Made by a program: the position numbers and the translations under genes
In this document: piece after piece, positions 5,554 to 22,032 of the stretch
How positions within the stretch are numbered: the first letter of the stretch is position 1
Layout of the letters: every line of letters begins with the position of its first letter
NCBI RefSeq assembly: GCF_900103715.1
Contig: NZ_FNHL01000001.1
Coordinates: forward strand, 445,295 to 477,294
From: Halogranum gelatinilyticum
Lineage (GTDB): Archaea; Halobacteriota; Halobacteria; Halobacteriales; Haloferacaceae
DNA length: 32,000 nucleotides
Direction: 5' to 3'
Notes under the pieces: model-generated
Databases searched by the model: none
What the model saw: the letters and a program-made list of their open reading frames with translations, nothing else
What the model was told of the DNA's origin: nothing

Positions 5554-5628
5554 TGGGCCCTATCGGATTCGAACCAATGACCACTCGGTTATGAGCCGAG
5601 CGCTCTAACCAGACTGAGCTAAGGGCCC
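5554..5628 (-). tRNA. tRNA with CAT anticodon (elongator Met, or Ile2 if C34 is modified)
   Basis: A hand-folded 75-nt cloverleaf: acceptor GGGCCCT/AGGGCCC, anticodon arm CTCGG-CTCATAA-CCGAG, T arm ATTGG-TTCGAAT-CCGAT, discriminator A. No encoded CCA. Confidence 0.9.
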
Positions 5629-5795
5629 GTACGCCGTCTTTCCCGTGGCCGCTTCTTTAGCGTTACCTTGTCGTTTCACGTCCGCACAGTGACCTCACTC
5701 TCGTCTCCCGTTCCCTGCGCCTTGCCGTGTGTCATACACCGAACTTTCGGCCGAAGACGAGACTCATCGCTTGTGAGGTAGGTTCGGGAAAATCA

Positions 5796-5868
5796 CGCCG
5801 TCGCCAGGACTCGAACCTGGGACCACCTCGTTAACAGCGAGGTGCTCTACCATCTGAGCTACGACGGC
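5796..5868 (-). tRNA. tRNA-Asn (GTT)
   Basis: A hand-folded 73-nt cloverleaf: acceptor GCCGTCG/CGACGGC, anticodon arm CCTCG-CTGTTAA-CGAGG, T arm CCAGG-TTCGAGT-CCTGG. Confidence 0.9.
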
Positions 5869-11722: not shown

Positions 11723-11795
11723 GTCCTGGTAGGGTAGTGGACTATCCTCTTGGCTTGCGGAGCCAGGGACCGGAGTTCAAATCTCCGTCAGGACG
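11723..11795 (+). tRNA. tRNA-Arg (GCG)
   Basis: A hand-folded 73-nt cloverleaf: acceptor GTCCTGG/TCAGGAC, anticodon arm TTGGC-TTGCGGA-GCCAG, 4-nt variable loop, T arm CGGAG-TTCAAAT-CTCCG, discriminator G, followed by TTTT. Confidence 0.85.
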
Positions 11796-11891
11796 TTTTC
11801 GAGGGCACTAACACGACGAGCGAAGCGAGTCGTCAGTGCCCGTTTCGAGTCAAACACGGAGATTTGAGCAGGGAGCGGCTTCGCCGCGACC

Positions 11892-11916
11892 GAGTTCAAA
11901 TCTCCGTCAGGACGTT
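11892..11916 (+). repeat. Exact 25-nt copy of the tRNA-Arg 3' end (T-loop to discriminator plus TT)
   Basis: GAGTTCAAATCTCCGTCAGGACGTT is identical to 11773-11797 inside and just past the tRNA. Confidence 0.95.
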
Positions 11917-11968
11917 CACTTTCGTTCGCGACCTGACTTGCCCCACGCTCGCGTCCGCTCGCGTGAGA

Positions 11969-11984
11969 CTCCGTCAGGACGTTT
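11969..11984 (+). repeat. Exact 16-nt copy of the tRNA-Arg 3' end
   Basis: CTCCGTCAGGACGTTT is identical to 11783-11798. Confidence 0.9.
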
Positions 11985-12154
11985 CTCTCGGAAAACTACG
12001 CCCGCGAGAGACCTCTGTATCTCCCGATTCGCTGCTCACCGACATAGAGACCCATCGCTCGTTGGTGTCACCAACCCTGCGTCGGCAACGGGGCAAACTC
12101 GTGGGTCACGGATCAGCGAACTGTGCTGGGGGGACCCGATTCGGGGCGTCCGTG

Positions 12155-14972: not shown

Positions 14973-15710
14973 TCAGCGGTGGTCCGGTCGGCGGACGTCT
15001 CTTTTCGCGACGGCATCGAGCAGTTTCACGAGCGACGCCGTCGCCAGCGTCAGCAGCTCCTCGCCACGCTCGGTGTCGCCCTCGGCCGGGTCGCCGACGA
15101 CGCCGTTCTCGGAGAACTCCGCGGAGTCGTGGGCGAGGTTGACCCGCGAGACCCACTCGCCCCAGCCGTCAGCCGCGCCCTCGCGGGCTTCGTCGAGACG
15201 GTCCTCCTGGACCAACTCGGGCGCGAGATGTCGGAGCATCGCCGTCTCCAGCGGGCCGCCGTGACCCATGTCCGAGGAGTGCTCGCCGACCGACTCGAAC
15301 CAGGTGAAGGCGACGGCGTAGGCGTCGTCGTGACGGCTGATGGTCCCCGTGACCTCGCGGAGCGCGTCGACGTTGCCGCCGTGGCCGTTGACGACGACGA
15401 CCCGGTCGAAACCGTGGTGGGCGAGGCTCTGGACCGTCTCGCGCACGTAGTCGCGGAAGGTCTCGGGTGAGACCCAGAGCGTCCCGGTGAACTGGCGATG
15501 TTCCTCGGCGACGCCGACAGGGATGGCGGGAGCGACGACGACCTCTTCGTCGTACGCCTCGGCGGCCGCGTCGGCGACGGCAGTGGCAGTGAGAGTGTCC
15601 GTGCCGAGCGGGGCGTGTGGCCCGTGCTGTTCGGTGCTGCCGACGGGGAGAAGCGCGAGGTCCGTGTCGCAGTCGTCGACGTCGGTCCACGTGGCGTCCG
15701 CGAGATGCAT
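14973..15710 (-). CDS. Creatininase-family amidohydrolase (ArfB-like)
   Basis: 245-aa ORF. The N-terminus LALLPVGSTEQHGPHAPLGTD and the internal VVVNGHGGN are creatininase-family motifs. Confidence 0.8.
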   Translation of the reverse strand: MHLADATWTDVDDCDTDLALLPVGSTEQHGPHAPLGTDTLTATAVADAAAEAYDEEVVVAPAIPVGVAEEHRQFTGTLWVSPETFRDYVRETVQSLAHHGFDRVVVVNGHGGNVDALREVTGTISRHDDAYAVAFTWFESVGEHSSDMGHGGPLETAMLRHLAPELVQEDRLDEAREGAADGWGEWVSRVNLAHDSAEFSENGVVGDPAEGDTERGEELLTLATASLVKLLDAVAKRDVRRPDHR

Positions 15711-18710: not shown

Positions 18711-18784
18711 GGGCTCGTGGTCTAGCTGGTTATGACGCGGCCTTTACAAGGCTGAGATCGGTGGTTCGACTCCGCCCGAGCCCA
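18711..18784 (+). tRNA. tRNA-Val (TAC)
   Basis: A hand-folded 74-nt cloverleaf: acceptor GGGCTCG/CGAGCCC, anticodon arm CGGCC-TTTACAA-GGCTG, T arm GGTGG-TTCGACT-CCGCC, discriminator A. Confidence 0.9.
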
Positions 18785-18885
18785 CTTCTGCCGACACAAT
18801 ACGACGAGCGCAGCGAGGAGTCTGTGTCGGCTGGGTGGGCGACGCGGGGCGAACCCTGCAAGACGAACGTAGTGAGTCTTGCTCC

Positions 18886-18907
18886 GGTTCGACTCCGCCC
18901 GAGCCCA
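18886..18907 (+). repeat. Exact 22-nt copy of the tRNA-Val 3' end (copy 2)
   Basis: GGTTCGACTCCGCCCGAGCCCA is identical to 18763-18784. The 5' half of the T stem is not conserved, so this is not a functional tRNA. Confidence 0.95.
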
Positions 18908-19002
18908 TGATTCTGTGGCGAACAGCGTGAGTCCAGAATCATCTACGTGAGTGGTAGAGTCGAAGCAGGGAACGAAACGAGCGACGCGAGTGGAGTGACC
19001 GC

Positions 19003-19024
19003 GGTTCGACTCCGCCCGAGCCCA
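19003..19024 (+). repeat. Exact 22-nt copy of the tRNA-Val 3' end (copy 3)
   Basis: GGTTCGACTCCGCCCGAGCCCA is identical to 18763-18784 and 18886-18907. The three copies are 123 and 117 bp apart. Confidence 0.95.
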
Positions 19025-19149
19025 TCAGATTTTGTGACGAACCGAACGGTGAGTCACAAATCTGTGCCGAGAGAGCGGTCCAATCCCACAAGACGAACCA
19101 CCGACCGGAGAGAAAACACCTTAGTCCGGTCGCTGTGGCAAGGTAAACG

Positions 19150-20964
19150 ATGACAGACTCCGACCGAGAGGGAGCACACCAGGACGCCGACGCCCACGGG
19201 AGCGACGTCCCCGCCACAGGCGAGGTCGTTCCGGATATGTTCTCCTCGGACCAGGTGTTCCAGCGTATCGTCATGGACGCGGACCACGAAATCACCTCCA
19301 GCGTCCGCGAGCTCTTCTTCGCGGCCGTCGCCGGGGGCTTTGCGATCACCATCACGTATCTGTTGTACGCGTCGATGACCGCCAAGACCGGCGGATCTAT
19401 CGCCGCCGTCTTGCTGTATCCCCTCGGTTTCATCTACATCATCATCGGCGGCTACCAGCTCTACACCGAGAACACGCTCCCGCCGGTGGCGTTGACACTG
19501 GAGCGTCTCGCCAGCGTCCCGAGACTGCTCCGACATTGGCTGGTCGTGCTCGCGGGCAACTTCACCGGCGGGGCAATCGGTGCCGTCGTGCTCGCCTACG
19601 GCGAAGTGTTCAGCCCCGAAGCCGCGGCGGTCGCCGCCGACCTGGCACAGAAGGGCATCGCGACGTCGCCGACGGCACTCTTCTTCAAAGGTGCCTTCGC
19701 CGGGCTGATCGTCGCCGGTGTCGTCTGGATGAACTTCGCGGCCCGCGACACCGTCTCGCGGGTGCTCATCGTCTATCTCGCGTTCCTGGCGATCCCGCTC
19801 GGAAATCTCTTTCACGTCGTCGTCTCCTTCACCGAGTCGGTTTATCTGATGCTCGTCGGCGGTCCCGGTCTCTTCGTCTCGATGACTGAGTTCGTCATCC
19901 CCGTCTTGCTCGGTAACACCATCGGCGGCGTCCTGTTGGTCACCGTCGTCAACTACTACCAGACCAGCGAACGCCGTCTCGACGTCGAGCACTTCGAGAA
20001 CGTCCGTCGGCTCTCGACCAGAGAGTGGCTGCTCGGGAACCTCGCGGGCCGGTCGTACGTCCCCGTCGTCGACACGCTCGGCGATTTCGTCCGTGACCCC
20101 GACTCCTTCCGTATCCTGGTCCCGGTCGCGAACCCCCGGACAGAGGGCCCCATCGTGGAGTTCGCCTGCGCGCTTGCGAGCGTCCACGAGAAGAGTACCG
20201 TCCACGCCGTCCACATCGTCCAGACGCCCTCTCGGGTCTCACCCAAGGCAGACGGTCACCACCGTCGCATCCTCCGGGAGTCCGCCGACCTCATGGACGA
20301 CGTCGAACGGCGCGTCGAGGGCTACGACGTCAACTTCGAGACCTCGACCATCGTCTCCTCGCGCTCGTTCGAGGAGGTCTTCGACCGCGCGCGTCGGACG
20401 CGTCCCGACCTCGTCGTCATCGGCTGGGGCGACGACCGCCTGTGGAACGCCGCCCGCGCGGAACGGCCGCTCGACGAGCTGACCAACCGGCTGCCCTCGG
20501 ACTTCCTCGTGGTCAAAGACCGCGGACTGGACACCTCGCGCGTGCTCCTGCCGACGGCCGGTGGACCGGACTCCGGTCTCAGTGCCGACGTCGCTCGGGC
20601 GCTTCAGTCGTCCGTCGGAGCCGAGGTGTCGCTGCTCCACGTCGTCGGCCGCGGCGAGCGCGAGGCGGGCGAGGCGTTCCTCGCCGACTGGGCGGCCGAA
20701 CAGGGTCTCGACGACGCGACGCAGTTCGTCGACGACTCCGGCGACGTCGAAGCGGCGATCAAGCGCGCGGCCGACGACCACTCGCTGGTGCTCATCGGCG
20801 CGACCGAGCGCGGACTCCTCTCGCGACTCGTCACGGACTCGCTCCATCTCGACGTCGTCAACGAGGTCGACGCCTCGGTCTTGCTGGCCGAACGCCCCTC
20901 CAGTCGGCCGCTGACCGAGCGGCTGTTCGGCCGCGGCCGCCGCGAGAAACGGAAACGGCCGTGA
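19150..20964 (+). CDS. Formate/nitrite transporter (FNT) family channel fused to two universal stress protein (UspA) domains
   Basis: 604-aa ORF. The N-terminal roughly 280 aa is a polytopic FNT-like domain (GGFAITITYLL..., LAGNFTGGAIG, LGNTIGGVLLV). The C-terminal half holds two USP-like units (FRILVPVANP...VHIVQ and RVLLPTAGGPDS...LLHVV). Confidence 0.75.
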   Translation: MTDSDREGAHQDADAHGSDVPATGEVVPDMFSSDQVFQRIVMDADHEITSSVRELFFAAVAGGFAITITYLLYASMTAKTGGSIAAVLLYPLGFIYIIIGGYQLYTENTLPPVALTLERLASVPRLLRHWLVVLAGNFTGGAIGAVVLAYGEVFSPEAAAVAADLAQKGIATSPTALFFKGAFAGLIVAGVVWMNFAARDTVSRVLIVYLAFLAIPLGNLFHVVVSFTESVYLMLVGGPGLFVSMTEFVIPVLLGNTIGGVLLVTVVNYYQTSERRLDVEHFENVRRLSTREWLLGNLAGRSYVPVVDTLGDFVRDPDSFRILVPVANPRTEGPIVEFACALASVHEKSTVHAVHIVQTPSRVSPKADGHHRRILRESADLMDDVERRVEGYDVNFETSTIVSSRSFEEVFDRARRTRPDLVVIGWGDDRLWNAARAERPLDELTNRLPSDFLVVKDRGLDTSRVLLPTAGGPDSGLSADVARALQSSVGAEVSLLHVVGRGEREAGEAFLADWAAEQGLDDATQFVDDSGDVEAAIKRAADDHSLVLIGATERGLLSRLVTDSLHLDVVNEVDASVLLAERPSSRPLTERLFGRGRREKRKRP

Positions 20965-21054
20965 CCGGCGCGACTCCCCCAGCTGTGCGGTCTGCGGCTG
21001 CCGTAACCGCGCAGGATGGCGTTGTGCCTCTCCGCCGATGTGCGGGGCCGTAGC

Positions 21055-21097
21055 GGCCATCGAGGCCATCAGGGCCATCCGGACTCTCGTGGCCATC
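21055..21097. repeat. Short GGCCATC repeat, 3 tandem 9-bp units plus 1 spaced copy
   Basis: The sequence is ggccatc ga ggccatc ag ggccatc cggactctcgt ggccatc, in the intergenic region after the FNT-USP gene. Confidence 0.7.
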
Positions 21098-21173
21098 AGA
21101 CATTTACTCCGACAGACCCGAATCCGGGTATGGATAGTTGGGAGAGGCATCTTCGGGCAACGGAAGGAGACAG

Positions 21174-21749
21174 ATGACGAGCAAGACAGCCGTCTTCGGT
21201 GTCGTCTTGCTCGTCGTCACCGGCGGGCTCGCGGGCGCGTTCGCCCTCGGCGTCAACCCGATCGACATCATCTCTAGTCCGACTTCCAACGGCAGTGTCG
21301 GCGGCGATACCGGCGGCACCAGTGACACCGGCGACACGGCTTCGGACGGCAGCTCCACGGGTGACACGGGGTCCAGCAGCGAGACGGACAACAGTACAGC
21401 CGACAGCGGGAGCGACACGCCGAGCTTCTCCTTCGTCGTCCAGAACATCGAAGAGTGCGGGACGACCTGCCGTGACGTGACCGTGGCGGCGACGAACCAG
21501 ATGGACGACACGGCGACGAACGTCGAGGTCGAGACGGTCATCTCCGCCGACGGCGACCAGCTCTGGACGGGAACGGAGTCCTTCACGGAAGTCGACGCTG
21601 GCGAGAGCAAGACCCGGACGAAGCGTGTCAAACTGGGGTATCTCGAAGCCGCGAAGGTACAGAACAACGACGGCTACATCACCGTCACGACCACCATCAC
21701 GTGGGACGGCGGCGAACAGACGTTCAGCGAACGCCGAAAAGTCGCATAA
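21174..21749 (+). CDS. Hypothetical membrane-anchored extracellular protein with a Ser/Thr/Gly/Asp-rich linker
   Basis: The ORF is trimmed to the ATG at 21174 (MTSKTAVFGVVLLVVTGGLAGAFALG), which is preceded by GGAAGGAGA. A low-complexity TGDTxS linker is followed by a beta-rich domain. Confidence 0.6.
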   Translation: MTSKTAVFGVVLLVVTGGLAGAFALGVNPIDIISSPTSNGSVGGDTGGTSDTGDTASDGSSTGDTGSSSETDNSTADSGSDTPSFSFVVQNIEECGTTCRDVTVAATNQMDDTATNVEVETVISADGDQLWTGTESFTEVDAGESKTRTKRVKLGYLEAAKVQNNDGYITVTTTITWDGGEQTFSERRKVA

Positions 21750-21808
21750 GGCGCGGCGGTTCAATTCCGAAATCCTTTTCCAACAGTCCGGCATCGGTTT
21801 GGGTGTAA

Positions 21809-21882
21809 GCCGCCTTAGCTCAGACTGGGAGAGCACTCGACTGAAGATCGAGCTGTCCCCGGTTCAAATCCGGGAGGCGGCA
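21809..21882 (+). tRNA. tRNA-Phe (GAA)
   Basis: A hand-folded 74-nt cloverleaf: acceptor GCCGCCT/AGGCGGC, anticodon arm CTCGA-CTGAAGA-TCGAG, T arm CCCGG-TTCAAAT-CCGGG, discriminator A. Confidence 0.9.
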
Positions 21883-22018
21883 TCATTCTACGGCCGACTA
21901 CGTGAACGAGCGGAGCGAGTGAGCCGCCGGCCGGGACGATACGACGAGAGCGGATTTGAATCAGACGAGTCGCAGTGCCGAGCGAAGCGAGGCGACCGTC
22001 TCGGCGATGTTCACAATT

Positions 22019-22032
22019 CGGGAGGCGGCATC
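22019..22032 (+). repeat. 14-nt exact copy of the tRNA-Phe 3' end, followed by T5
   Basis: CGGGAGGCGGCATC is identical to 21871-21884. With one mismatch the match extends to AAT(C/T)CGGGAGGCGGCATC. TTTTT lies at 22036-22040. Confidence 0.8.

Follow-up and report, generated by a model that had tools for sequence, protein, structure and literature searches.

Hairpin-bearing units without genes, bounded by tRNA 3'-end copies, behind haloarchaeal tRNA genes and their likeness to integrase attachment-site arms

A stretch of 32,000 nucleotides from the genome of Halogranum gelatinilyticum (contig NZ_FNHL01000001.1, positions 445,295 to 477,294), hereafter the window, was analysed with regard to a family of stem-loops located in the trailers of its tRNA genes. 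The G+C content of the window is 64%. A reading of the sequence alone had described these stem-loops as free-standing trailer hairpins with arbitrary stems; instead, they belong to insertion-like units that are repeated and have copies of the tRNA 3' end at their boundaries. The interpretation that we favour, at about an even chance of being correct, is that the units are insertion modules without open reading frames (ORFs), bounded by attachment (att) sites and related to the att arms of tyrosine-integrase elements.

The window contains five tRNA genes. Behind tRNA-Arg, tRNA-Val and tRNA-Phe, direct copies of the tRNA end are present, which span from the T loop to the discriminator base of the own tRNA. 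The order of a unit is tRNA end, hairpin A, linker, inverted T arm, hairpin B and direct tRNA-end copy. The inverted copy of the T-loop region is located about 28-40 nt upstream of each tRNA-end copy, and in two cases it is followed by the block GCAGGGARCG. Minimum-free-energy folds gave two hairpins per unit, of which the second pairs the T-arm copy with the inverted copy. The features are the following.

11723-11795, plus strand: tRNA-Arg(GCG), the target gene; the repeated segment runs from the T loop to the 3' end, 11773-11795
11796-11914, plus strand: Arg unit 1, closed by the direct tRNA-Arg 3'-end copy
11804-11840, plus strand: Arg hairpin A, stem GGCACT..ACGAC / GTCGT..AGTGCC, apex GAGCGAAGCGA
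11856-11867, plus strand: inverted tRNA-Arg T loop and 3' T stem, ACGGAGATTTGA, then GCAGGGAGCG at 11868-11877
11856-11907, plus strand: Arg hairpin B, formed by 12-14 bp between the inverted T-arm copy and the T-arm copy downstream of it
11892-11914, plus strand: direct copy of the tRNA-Arg 3' end; 11892-11916 equals 11773-11797 at 25/25 positions
11915-11981, plus strand: short-type unit behind tRNA-Arg, with only a 13-nt tRNA-end copy, CTCCGTCAGGACG, at 11969-11981
18711-18784, plus strand: tRNA-Val(UAC); the repeated segment is GGTTCGACTCCGCCCGAGCCCA, 18763-18784
18785-18907, plus strand: Val unit 1, with hairpin A at 18790-18831, a degenerate inverted T arm at 18846-18855 and hairpin B at 18858-18882
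18886-18907, plus strand: tRNA-end copy of Val unit 1, equal to 18763-18784
18908-19024, plus strand: Val unit 2, with hairpin A at 18908-18941, inverted T arm at 18957-18967, GCAGGGAACG at 18965-18974 and apex B at 18978-18990
19003-19024, plus strand: tRNA-end copy of Val unit 2, equal to 18763-18784
19026-19064, plus strand: terminal Val hairpin A, CAGATTTTGTGAC-GAACCGAACGGTGA-GTCACAAATCTG, with no tRNA-end copy after it
21809-21882, plus strand: tRNA-Phe(GAA)
21883-22030, plus strand: Phe unit, with hairpin A at 21892-21932 (apex 21907-21919) and inverted T loop at 21950-21962
21963-22001, plus strand: Phe hairpin B, long, apex 21979-21991
22010-22030, plus strand: degenerate copy of the tRNA-Phe end, followed by a T5 run

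The short-type unit also has apex motifs in inverse orientation (11916-11927 and 11944-11965) and an inverted acceptor copy, GACCTGAC, at 11930-11937. The tRNA-Phe segment 21867-21884 is close to 22015-22032. The terminal Val hairpin A is the same as the first hairpin A behind tRNA-Val in the metagenome contigs L133 and L147, and its apex is also present in L174 and L207.

The 13-mer CGAGCGVMGCGAG is present five times in the window versus 0.08 expected, and GCAGGGARCG three times (5709-5718 on the minus strand, 11868-11877 and 18965-18974 on the plus strand) versus 0.10 expected; none of 100 shuffles reached five or three copies, respectively. All copies of both are in tRNA trailers and in sense orientation. 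The positions previously given for both motifs were thus confirmed, and the six hairpins listed with them, as well as an inverted member at 11944-11965, are all present. To measure enrichment, 807 kb of GC-rich haloarchaeal DNA was scanned for a strict form of the apex motif that required two or more flanking pairs. Its density per kb was 1.80 in trailers in sense orientation, 0.17 in trailers in antisense orientation and 0.031 elsewhere (several of these last matches being trailers of tRNAs cut at a contig end or overlooked by the tRNA finder), a trailer density 58-fold above that of non-trailer DNA, with 85 sense versus 8 antisense matches. The claims of the sequence-only reading that the stem-loop family is specific to trailers and fixed in orientation were borne out, the motif being far rarer outside trailers. 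In Rfam, only the tRNAs of the window reached the gathering score and the remaining matches at E <= 1 were at chance level, in agreement with its statement that this is not a named RNA family. Two sub-threshold matches, both probably due to chance, were a ZMP/ZTP riboswitch (15478-15570, plus strand; 24.8 bits, E = 1) and CRISPR-DR29 (21972-22017, plus strand; 22.2 bits, E = 0.61), the latter overlapping Phe hairpin B.

From the base to the tip, the hairpin is formed by an outer stem, tandem G.A/A.G pairs, an R-Y pair that shows covariation, a C-G pair and a loop of the type GNA or GNNA; the apex variants of the R-Y pair are GAGC...GCGA or GAAC...GTGA. What had been taken as a common loop of the hairpins is not unpaired; it reads G.A / A.G / R-Y / C-G / triloop. 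Within the hairpins first described, the loop is GAA at 11817-11829 and 21979-21991, GCA at 18805-18817, GGA at 21907-21919 and GTA at 18858-18882, and the remaining loops are GAC, AGC or longer. The commonest loops in 110 distinct hairpins were GGA (15), GAA (14), GACA (10) and GTA (9), and approximately half of these hairpins have a G-N(1-2)-A loop closed by C-G.

Covariation, which the same reading had suggested looking for, is genuine and is supported by apex pair 12-18 and by the outer pairs. Pair 12-18 was counted in trailer matches to GA-N-C...G-N-GA, in which the pair itself was unfiltered, and was G-C in 80, A-T in 31, A.C in 19 and G.T in 10 (odds ratio ~13). For the outer stem, an alignment of 54 distinct triloop hairpins was used, in which this stem was unselected except for its first pair: 65.8% of the outer-stem cells have standard pairs, versus 51.4% after shuffling (0 of 500 shuffles reach the value seen) and at most 37% when the partner was slid. 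The outer pair 8-22 of this alignment is G-C in 19, A-U in 14, C-G in 8 and U-A in 3 hairpins. The further claim that the stems are unrelated in sequence did not hold, since stem subfamilies recur and are common to different genomes. A covariance model, R1, recovered the trailer hairpins, which are its training data, and outside trailers only a solo hairpin of Haloarcula (L127 and L128) and one coding-like match in L127; it yielded hardly more than the motif scan had.

The sense strand of the four units in the window folds 7-10 kcal/mol better than the complement. Fold z-scores were -7.85 for the Arg unit (11796-11916; -64.3 kcal/mol), -4.25 for Val unit 1, -2.2 for Val unit 2 and +0.3 for the Phe unit. 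Stem mismatches comprise 21 G.T versus 11 A.C, which is suggestive, not decisive, for strand asymmetry. Both strands of the apex have GA in a Py-GA-Pu context, a context that favours sheared tandem G.A pairs. Judged by sequence, the hairpin family would fall within the definition of the d(GCGNAGC)/d(GCGNNAGC) DNA mini-hairpins. Their GCG-N(1-2)-AGC core has been reported as an "extraordinarily stable" DNA mini-hairpin sequence (PMC13037366). A kink-turn or K-loop RNA was also considered and rejected: there is no three-nucleotide bulge, and in well-paired members the outer stem abuts the G.A pairs directly.

The same architecture was found behind tRNA-Val and tRNA-Phe in two Halobellus genomes. 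Hypersaline metagenomes were scanned with the tRNA-Val 3' end alone, with nothing required downstream, which gave at least 120 contigs; 29 among the matches listed have two or three exact copies of the tRNA-Val end, 85-204 nt apart. The number of copies was determined for 74 non-redundant GC-rich tRNA-Val(UAC) trailers with sufficient downstream sequence, likewise among the matches listed. One to four downstream tRNA-end copies are present in 51 of the 74: 37 trailers have a single copy, 11 have two, 2 have three and 1 has four, and the other 23 have none. Units are 67-166 nt long, mostly 105-125 nt, with 49 of 77 between 101 and 125 nt, and no ORF is present inside them. AT-rich contigs of non-halophiles with the same tRNA end have nothing comparable downstream. 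In the metagenome contigs examined, the module is present behind about half of the tRNA-Phe genes and no units were seen behind tRNA-Met, Asp, Pro, Ala(CGC) or Val(GAC). In contig L161, an intron-containing tRNA (11920-12035; anticodon loop CTTCTAA, by eye), overlooked by ARAGORN, carries a full unit, and its array is closed by a short-type unit; some motif matches classed as not related to tRNAs are thus really trailer matches. The short-type unit also occurs as three tandem repeats behind tRNA-Arg in contig L182. Nine contigs (L148, L157, L159, L167, L171, L175, L177, L179 and L243) end 0-60 nt past the tRNA-Val 3' end, suggesting that repeats or variation between strains interrupt the assemblies here.

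In L180 (1880-3270, tRNA on the minus strand), an insert of 1.4 kb separates an intact tRNA-Phe from a displaced, degenerate 3' end that still bears a mini-unit. No integrase is present in the insert, but on the opposite strand it carries two ORFs, of 179 aa (helix-turn-helix-like by eye) and 169 aa. The left junction of this insert, cagAGTTCAAATGCCTGCGG, also starts the tRNA-Phe trailer of L239. In L158, L163 and L180, the middle part of tRNA-Phe, GCACTCGACTGAAGATCGAGCTGTCCC, which comprises the anticodon arm and the variable region, is repeated downstream of the real gene and is followed there, at the place of the T arm, by a GA-apex hairpin or related sequence; this copy may be an att remnant of a different kind.

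Comparison between arrays indicated that whole units behave as discrete pieces. In an alignment of 284 nt (the tRNA and ~210 nt beyond the array), contigs L239 and L247 show 100% identity; what distinguishes them is one 134-nt unit, which adjoins the tRNA and is flanked by two copies of a 24-nt repeat. The extra unit is the tRNA-adjacent one in all three polymorphic arrays examined, and the same unit types hold different positions across arrays. Among inner tRNA-end copies of arrays, 13 of 18 are perfect, and decay affects most of the last copies, mainly in their acceptor part; this comparison is biased, as copies were detected by T-arm similarity. The A and B halves recombine independently, with the inverted T arm as the junction. 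The B core of the Phe unit in the window is identical at 34 of 36 positions to that of a tRNA-Val unit in L162, a Phe unit shares 84% over 61 nt with a Val unit of Halobellus with the T-loop base changed on both arms, and one B core is also present inverted.

The apex hairpin also recurs, although not in every element examined, in the integrase-proximal att arm of one clade of haloarchaeal integrative elements. A pattern of apex hairpin plus T loop matched the 63-kb viral contig L253, in which a hairpin with a 7-bp stem and apex GAGCGGAGCGA is located 6 nt before a partial tRNA, CCCGGGTTCAAATCCCGGCGAGTCCA. This hairpin is ~115 nt from the start of a divergent gene, at a G+C step from ~0.52 to 0.65. 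This gene encodes a tyrosine recombinase, with a weak Pfam match and 206 haloarchaeal homologues, many of them named integrase with PF00589/PF02899. A second viral match of the combined pattern, L254, is not clearly haloarchaeal. The partial tRNA alone as query retrieved two further viral contigs, L262 and L263, with integrases 33% and 43% identical to that of L253 (mutual range of the three, 33-43%) and with GAGCG-type hairpins in the same arm, e.g. CCTGCC-GAGCGTGGCGA-GGCAGG. In L265/L266, GTCGGC-GAGCGAAGCGA-GCCGAC is located 8 nt before the partial tRNA, and in L268/L269 a GAGCGCC-GTCA-GGCGCGA hairpin is located between the integrase start and the partial tRNA; these integrases are 59% and 65% identical, respectively, to that of L253. 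The arm of L256 has GCGAAGC. The hairpin was not a search criterion when L262, L263, L265 and L268 were located. Proviral GA-apex hairpins differ in their stems (GCGCC/GGCGC, CCTGCC/GGCAGG, GTCGGC/GCCGAC) and occupy the same place as hairpin B in the mini-units. Their sense strand is antisense to the integrase gene, which would make a role at the DNA level more likely there. A paper on an SNJ2-type integrase gave no information on hairpins in att arms. Within viral contigs, the hairpin-only pattern retrieved unrelated AT-rich matches only, among them L042, which has no tRNA, its 14 specified bases being too few, and a scan for the inverted-T/T palindrome gave zero matches.

According to the interpretation as att-bounded insertion modules, a module would start right after the discriminator base of the tRNA with hairpin A and end with a copy of the T arm and 3' acceptor strand; the displaced tRNA end would fold back on its inverted copy, with hairpin B at the tip. 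Such modules would be created by site-specific recombination of tyrosine-integrase type at the T arm and 3' end of the tRNA. Each event would regenerate an intact tRNA, the unit supplying the new 3' end and the old end being pushed downstream. The conserved apex may act as a strand-specific structural signal of the attachment-site arm, and its combination of d(GCGNAGC)-type mini-hairpin and tandem sheared G.A pairs should make it very stable. More speculatively, the fold-back of hairpin B, with a stem that reproduces the duplex T arm, may itself be a recombination substrate, comparable to the attC sites of integrons or attP of the CTX phage; alternatively, its role may be no more than to neutralise an orphan tRNA end. 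Duplications of two lengths, 13 nt and 22-25 nt, are more readily explained by element lineages with different attachment cores than by a staggered cut of transposase type.

Several data weigh against this interpretation. No integrase or other gene is present inside or adjoining the units, and none of the 10 ORFs of the window that were scanned is a recombinase. No virus or provirus in IMG/VR has the tRNA-Val, tRNA-Phe or tRNA-Arg 3' end, and BLAST of the Val trailer against plasmid and phage collections gave no match; with no viral or plasmid carrier of these ends, no mobilising enzyme is identified. Together with the absence of any kb-scale duplication of the tRNA-Val end in the contigs examined, the lack of viral Val, Phe and Arg ends indicates that ordinary proviruses at these tRNAs, with just their ends in view, do not suffice to explain the units, while variable or intact elements may be under-sampled because many contigs end at tRNA-Val. 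Loss of the unit by deletion between the 24-nt repeats, in place of an insertion, could also account for the difference between L239 and L247. The proviral att arms have neither the inverted T-arm copy nor a hairpin A after the core, and the hairpin next to the core is missing in a related integrase element (L270/L271) and in a more distant element of Haloferax profundi (L261). Solo hairpins occur in 3' intergenic regions away from tRNAs, which a role at the RNA level fits at least as well. Finally, a module that moves to a new tRNA must carry the correct 3' end of that tRNA, a requirement for which the interpretation does not account.

The most serious rival, possible rather than probable in our judgement, is that the hairpins are cis-acting RNA of the pre-tRNA trailer, i.e. 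signals for termination, 3'-end protection or processing. The inverted T arm would then sequester the duplicated tRNA 3' end from mispairing with the real tRNA, and units would evolve in place through duplication and unequal crossing-over. The fixed orientation, the covariation and the start of hairpin A ~5-20 nt past the tRNA end are all in accordance with this, and so are the better fold of the sense strand and the excess of G.T over A.C mismatches; the orientation and this strand asymmetry fit single-stranded DNA too. Successive hairpins are identical in the arrays L185, L240, L161 and L194, as tandem duplication predicts, and the last copies are decayed far more in the acceptor part than in the T arm, with the detection bias given above. 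In addition, solo hairpins with compensatory changes stand beside T runs in 3' intergenic regions. The solo GA-apex hairpin of Haloarcula (L127 15320-15338 and L128 15378-15406, both on the minus strand) is located in L127 between convergent ORFs; between the orthologous hairpins of the two species the stem changes from CCGC/GCGG to CCGGT/GCCGG with the apex GAGCGAAGCGA unchanged, and a second hairpin and T runs follow. A hairpin upstream of the RNA 3' end can terminate transcription in Haloferax volcanii (PMC7237163). On the other hand, a trailer signal does not account for the 23 of 74 tRNA-Val genes, among the matches listed, without a downstream end copy, nor for the lack of units behind tRNA-Met, Asp, Pro, Ala and Val-GAC. 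One whole unit is present or absent between otherwise identical sequences, the same B cores occur on different tRNAs and in either orientation, and no sense transcript is expected for the proviral hairpins, antisense as they are to integrase genes. The loops, GNA or non-GNRA GNNA (GACA, GATA, GTCA), also follow the DNA mini-hairpin pattern and not that of a classical RNA tetraloop. Selection on a single-strand structure and origin by integration are compatible, not mutually exclusive: a module derived from integration could persist because it is harmless or useful in the transcript, and both explanations may hold.

A bolder proposal, which we rate as rather improbable, is that the units represent previously unrecognised, gene-less archaeal cassettes of ~100 nt that insert at tRNA genes via a folded single strand. 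The anti-T arm would pair with the T-arm copy and mimic the double-stranded tRNA gene, capped by the GA/GNA mini-hairpin. The units would then be an archaeal, tRNA-directed counterpart of integron cassettes or CTX-phage integration, with the inverted copy as a built-in, re-programmable address.

Distinctly improbable is the explanation that the units are passive relics of integrase-encoding proviruses or plasmids reduced to their two att arms, with no mobility or function of their own. Integration classically leaves copies of tRNA 3' ends behind (PMC3119063), the hairpin is found in proviral arms as well, and a kb-scale insertion at tRNA-Phe exists in the data (L180). However, random deletion would not give the tight unit sizes (49 of 77 at 101-125 nt), the inverted T arm and hairpin A of the units have no counterpart in the proviral arms, and the inner copies of arrays are perfect. 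Moreover, no intact element was seen at tRNA-Val in ~100 contigs, nor in IMG/VR, with the reservation that many contigs break at the tRNA and such elements may be under-sampled. The possibility raised by the sequence-only reading, that the hairpins are fragments of a known insertion or provirus family, applies in one part, since the modules are insertion-like and resemble provirus att arms, and fails in the other, as no described family was found. Likewise, no description of tRNA-end mini-units or of the hairpin was found in the literature on haloarchaea, which was covered incompletely, so that this is absence of evidence only.

A derivation from IS200/IS605 as palindrome-associated transposable elements (PATEs), with hairpins A and B as sub-terminal palindromes, is highly improbable. 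The units do have two similar hairpins on one strand, are small and lack an ORF, and PATEs down to 52 bp are abundant in haloarchaea (PMC3119063). This origin was rejected because PATE/IS605 elements make no target duplication, and here 13-25 nt are duplicated, and because the published haloarchaeal ends (palindromes such as CCTCGGGGCTTGACCCCGAGG, terminal ...TACTTCAC, target TCTAA/TCTAC) are unlike these hairpins (PMC3119063 Table S9); insertion is, furthermore, confined to tRNA ends. Chance similarity, which short motifs in DNA of such G+C content might invite, is negligible as an explanation, being ruled out by the shuffles, the 58-fold trailer density and the recurrence in hundreds of independent contigs.

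The remaining tRNA genes of the window and the spacer between them, where the sequence-only reading had placed its finding, are the following.

5554-5628, minus strand: tRNA-Met
5629-5795, minus strand: tRNA-Asn trailer and tRNA-Asn/tRNA-Met spacer, with GCAGGGAACG at 5709-5718, then GGAGACGAGAGTGAGGTCAC
5796-5868, minus strand: tRNA-Asn

The block GCAGGGAACG is present there as described, and the trailer carries only this GCAGGGAACG...GAGTGAGGTCAC block; the strict apex motif and the tRNA-end copy are absent from 5629-5795, and the fold is not significant (z-score +0.23). This trailer is a decayed B-type remnant and the weakest member of the hairpin family.

The flanking genes in the window are ordinary chromosomal genes, among them those for an alpha-amylase, a CCA-adding enzyme, a formate/nitrite transporter and a copper protein. 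The nearest relatives of the transporter are from Salinigranum (82-84% identity); the Salinigranum homologues have no tRNA nearby, and as orthologous loci only those of Halobellus were informative. The transporter gene, located between tRNA-Val and tRNA-Phe in the window (18711-21882), is inverted relative to both tRNAs in Halobellus clavatus (L126 9514-12385).

If the units are mobile, they would, to our knowledge, be far below the size of all site-specific integrative elements described so far; a gene-less attachment site could then spread and stack at tRNA genes by itself, and the units would offer a natural case in which the target to be recognised is specified by its inverted copy. If they act as RNA, they would constitute a widespread, unannotated 3' module of haloarchaeal tRNA transcripts and a new conserved hairpin motif of 3' intergenic regions and provirus att arms. 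For annotation, the partial tRNA copies can be mistaken for tRNA fragments or prophage borders, and the unit repeats coincide with the ends of metagenome contigs at tRNA-Val.

With respect to known systems, the units share with tyrosine-integrase elements an insert that has the 3' part of the tRNA directly repeated at its borders, with the upstream tRNA intact, and no integrase gene is present within their 67-166 nt. As in bacterial cis-mobilizable elements (CIMEs) and tRNA att sites, there are direct repeats of tRNA 3' ends, a regenerated tRNA and stacking at one tRNA. They differ from integrase-based tRNA elements in being far smaller (~70-165 nt) and gene-less, in carrying an inverted copy of the target and in having no known cognate integrase or full-length element at the same tRNAs.

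Integron attC sites fold as a single strand, and attP(+) of the CTX phage is used by XerCD. Similarly to these, an inverted core repeat flanks a spacer of 25-45 nt in the units, one strand can fold into a mimic of the target, the structure is strand-specific, and short cassettes form arrays beside a fixed site, here the tRNA, next to which the extra unit was found in the three polymorphic arrays examined. In contrast to attC and attP, the units have no IntI or Xer context, their core is the tRNA T arm and not GTTRRRY or dif, and their paired stem is only 12-16 bp. An identity with integron attC was rejected: in the T-arm inverted repeat (GGGCGGAGTCGAACC ... GGTTCGACTCCGCCC), GTTCGAC does not fit the GTTRRRY of the RYYYAAC ... 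GTTRRRY cores, the arrays are behind tRNA genes, and the scanned ORFs of the window include no integrase. Miniature inverted-repeat transposable elements were also rejected, since the ends of a unit are not mutual inverted repeats, the inverted repeat is internal and derived from the target, and there are two duplication lengths.

Integration of casposon or CRISPR type likewise uses a tRNA 3'-end target, duplicates the target and gives arrays polarised by a "leader"; unlike these, the units have two duplication lengths (13 and 22-25 nt) and no terminal inverted repeats. Genes of the Cas1 family (casposases) are not known from Halobacteria, and no scan for one was included here. Repetitive extragenic palindromes and bacterial interspersed mosaic elements (REP/BIME) and the PATE/SMR repeats of Haloquadratum (PMC3119063) are comparable as small intergenic hairpin repeats without ORFs, some of which are ~110 bp long and have a strong target preference; the units differ from them in sequence and, unlike them, duplicate their target and are tied to tRNA genes. 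The apex GA-GC-GNA-GC-GA contains GCGNAGC or GCGNNAGC exactly; the mini-hairpins of this sequence are, in contrast to the units, physico-chemical motifs and not a genetic element, and they are silent on whether DNA or RNA is folded. In their logic, the units are closest to att-bounded tRNA accretions without integrase and to the folded attC and attP sites, and in their chemistry to the GCGNAGC mini-hairpin.

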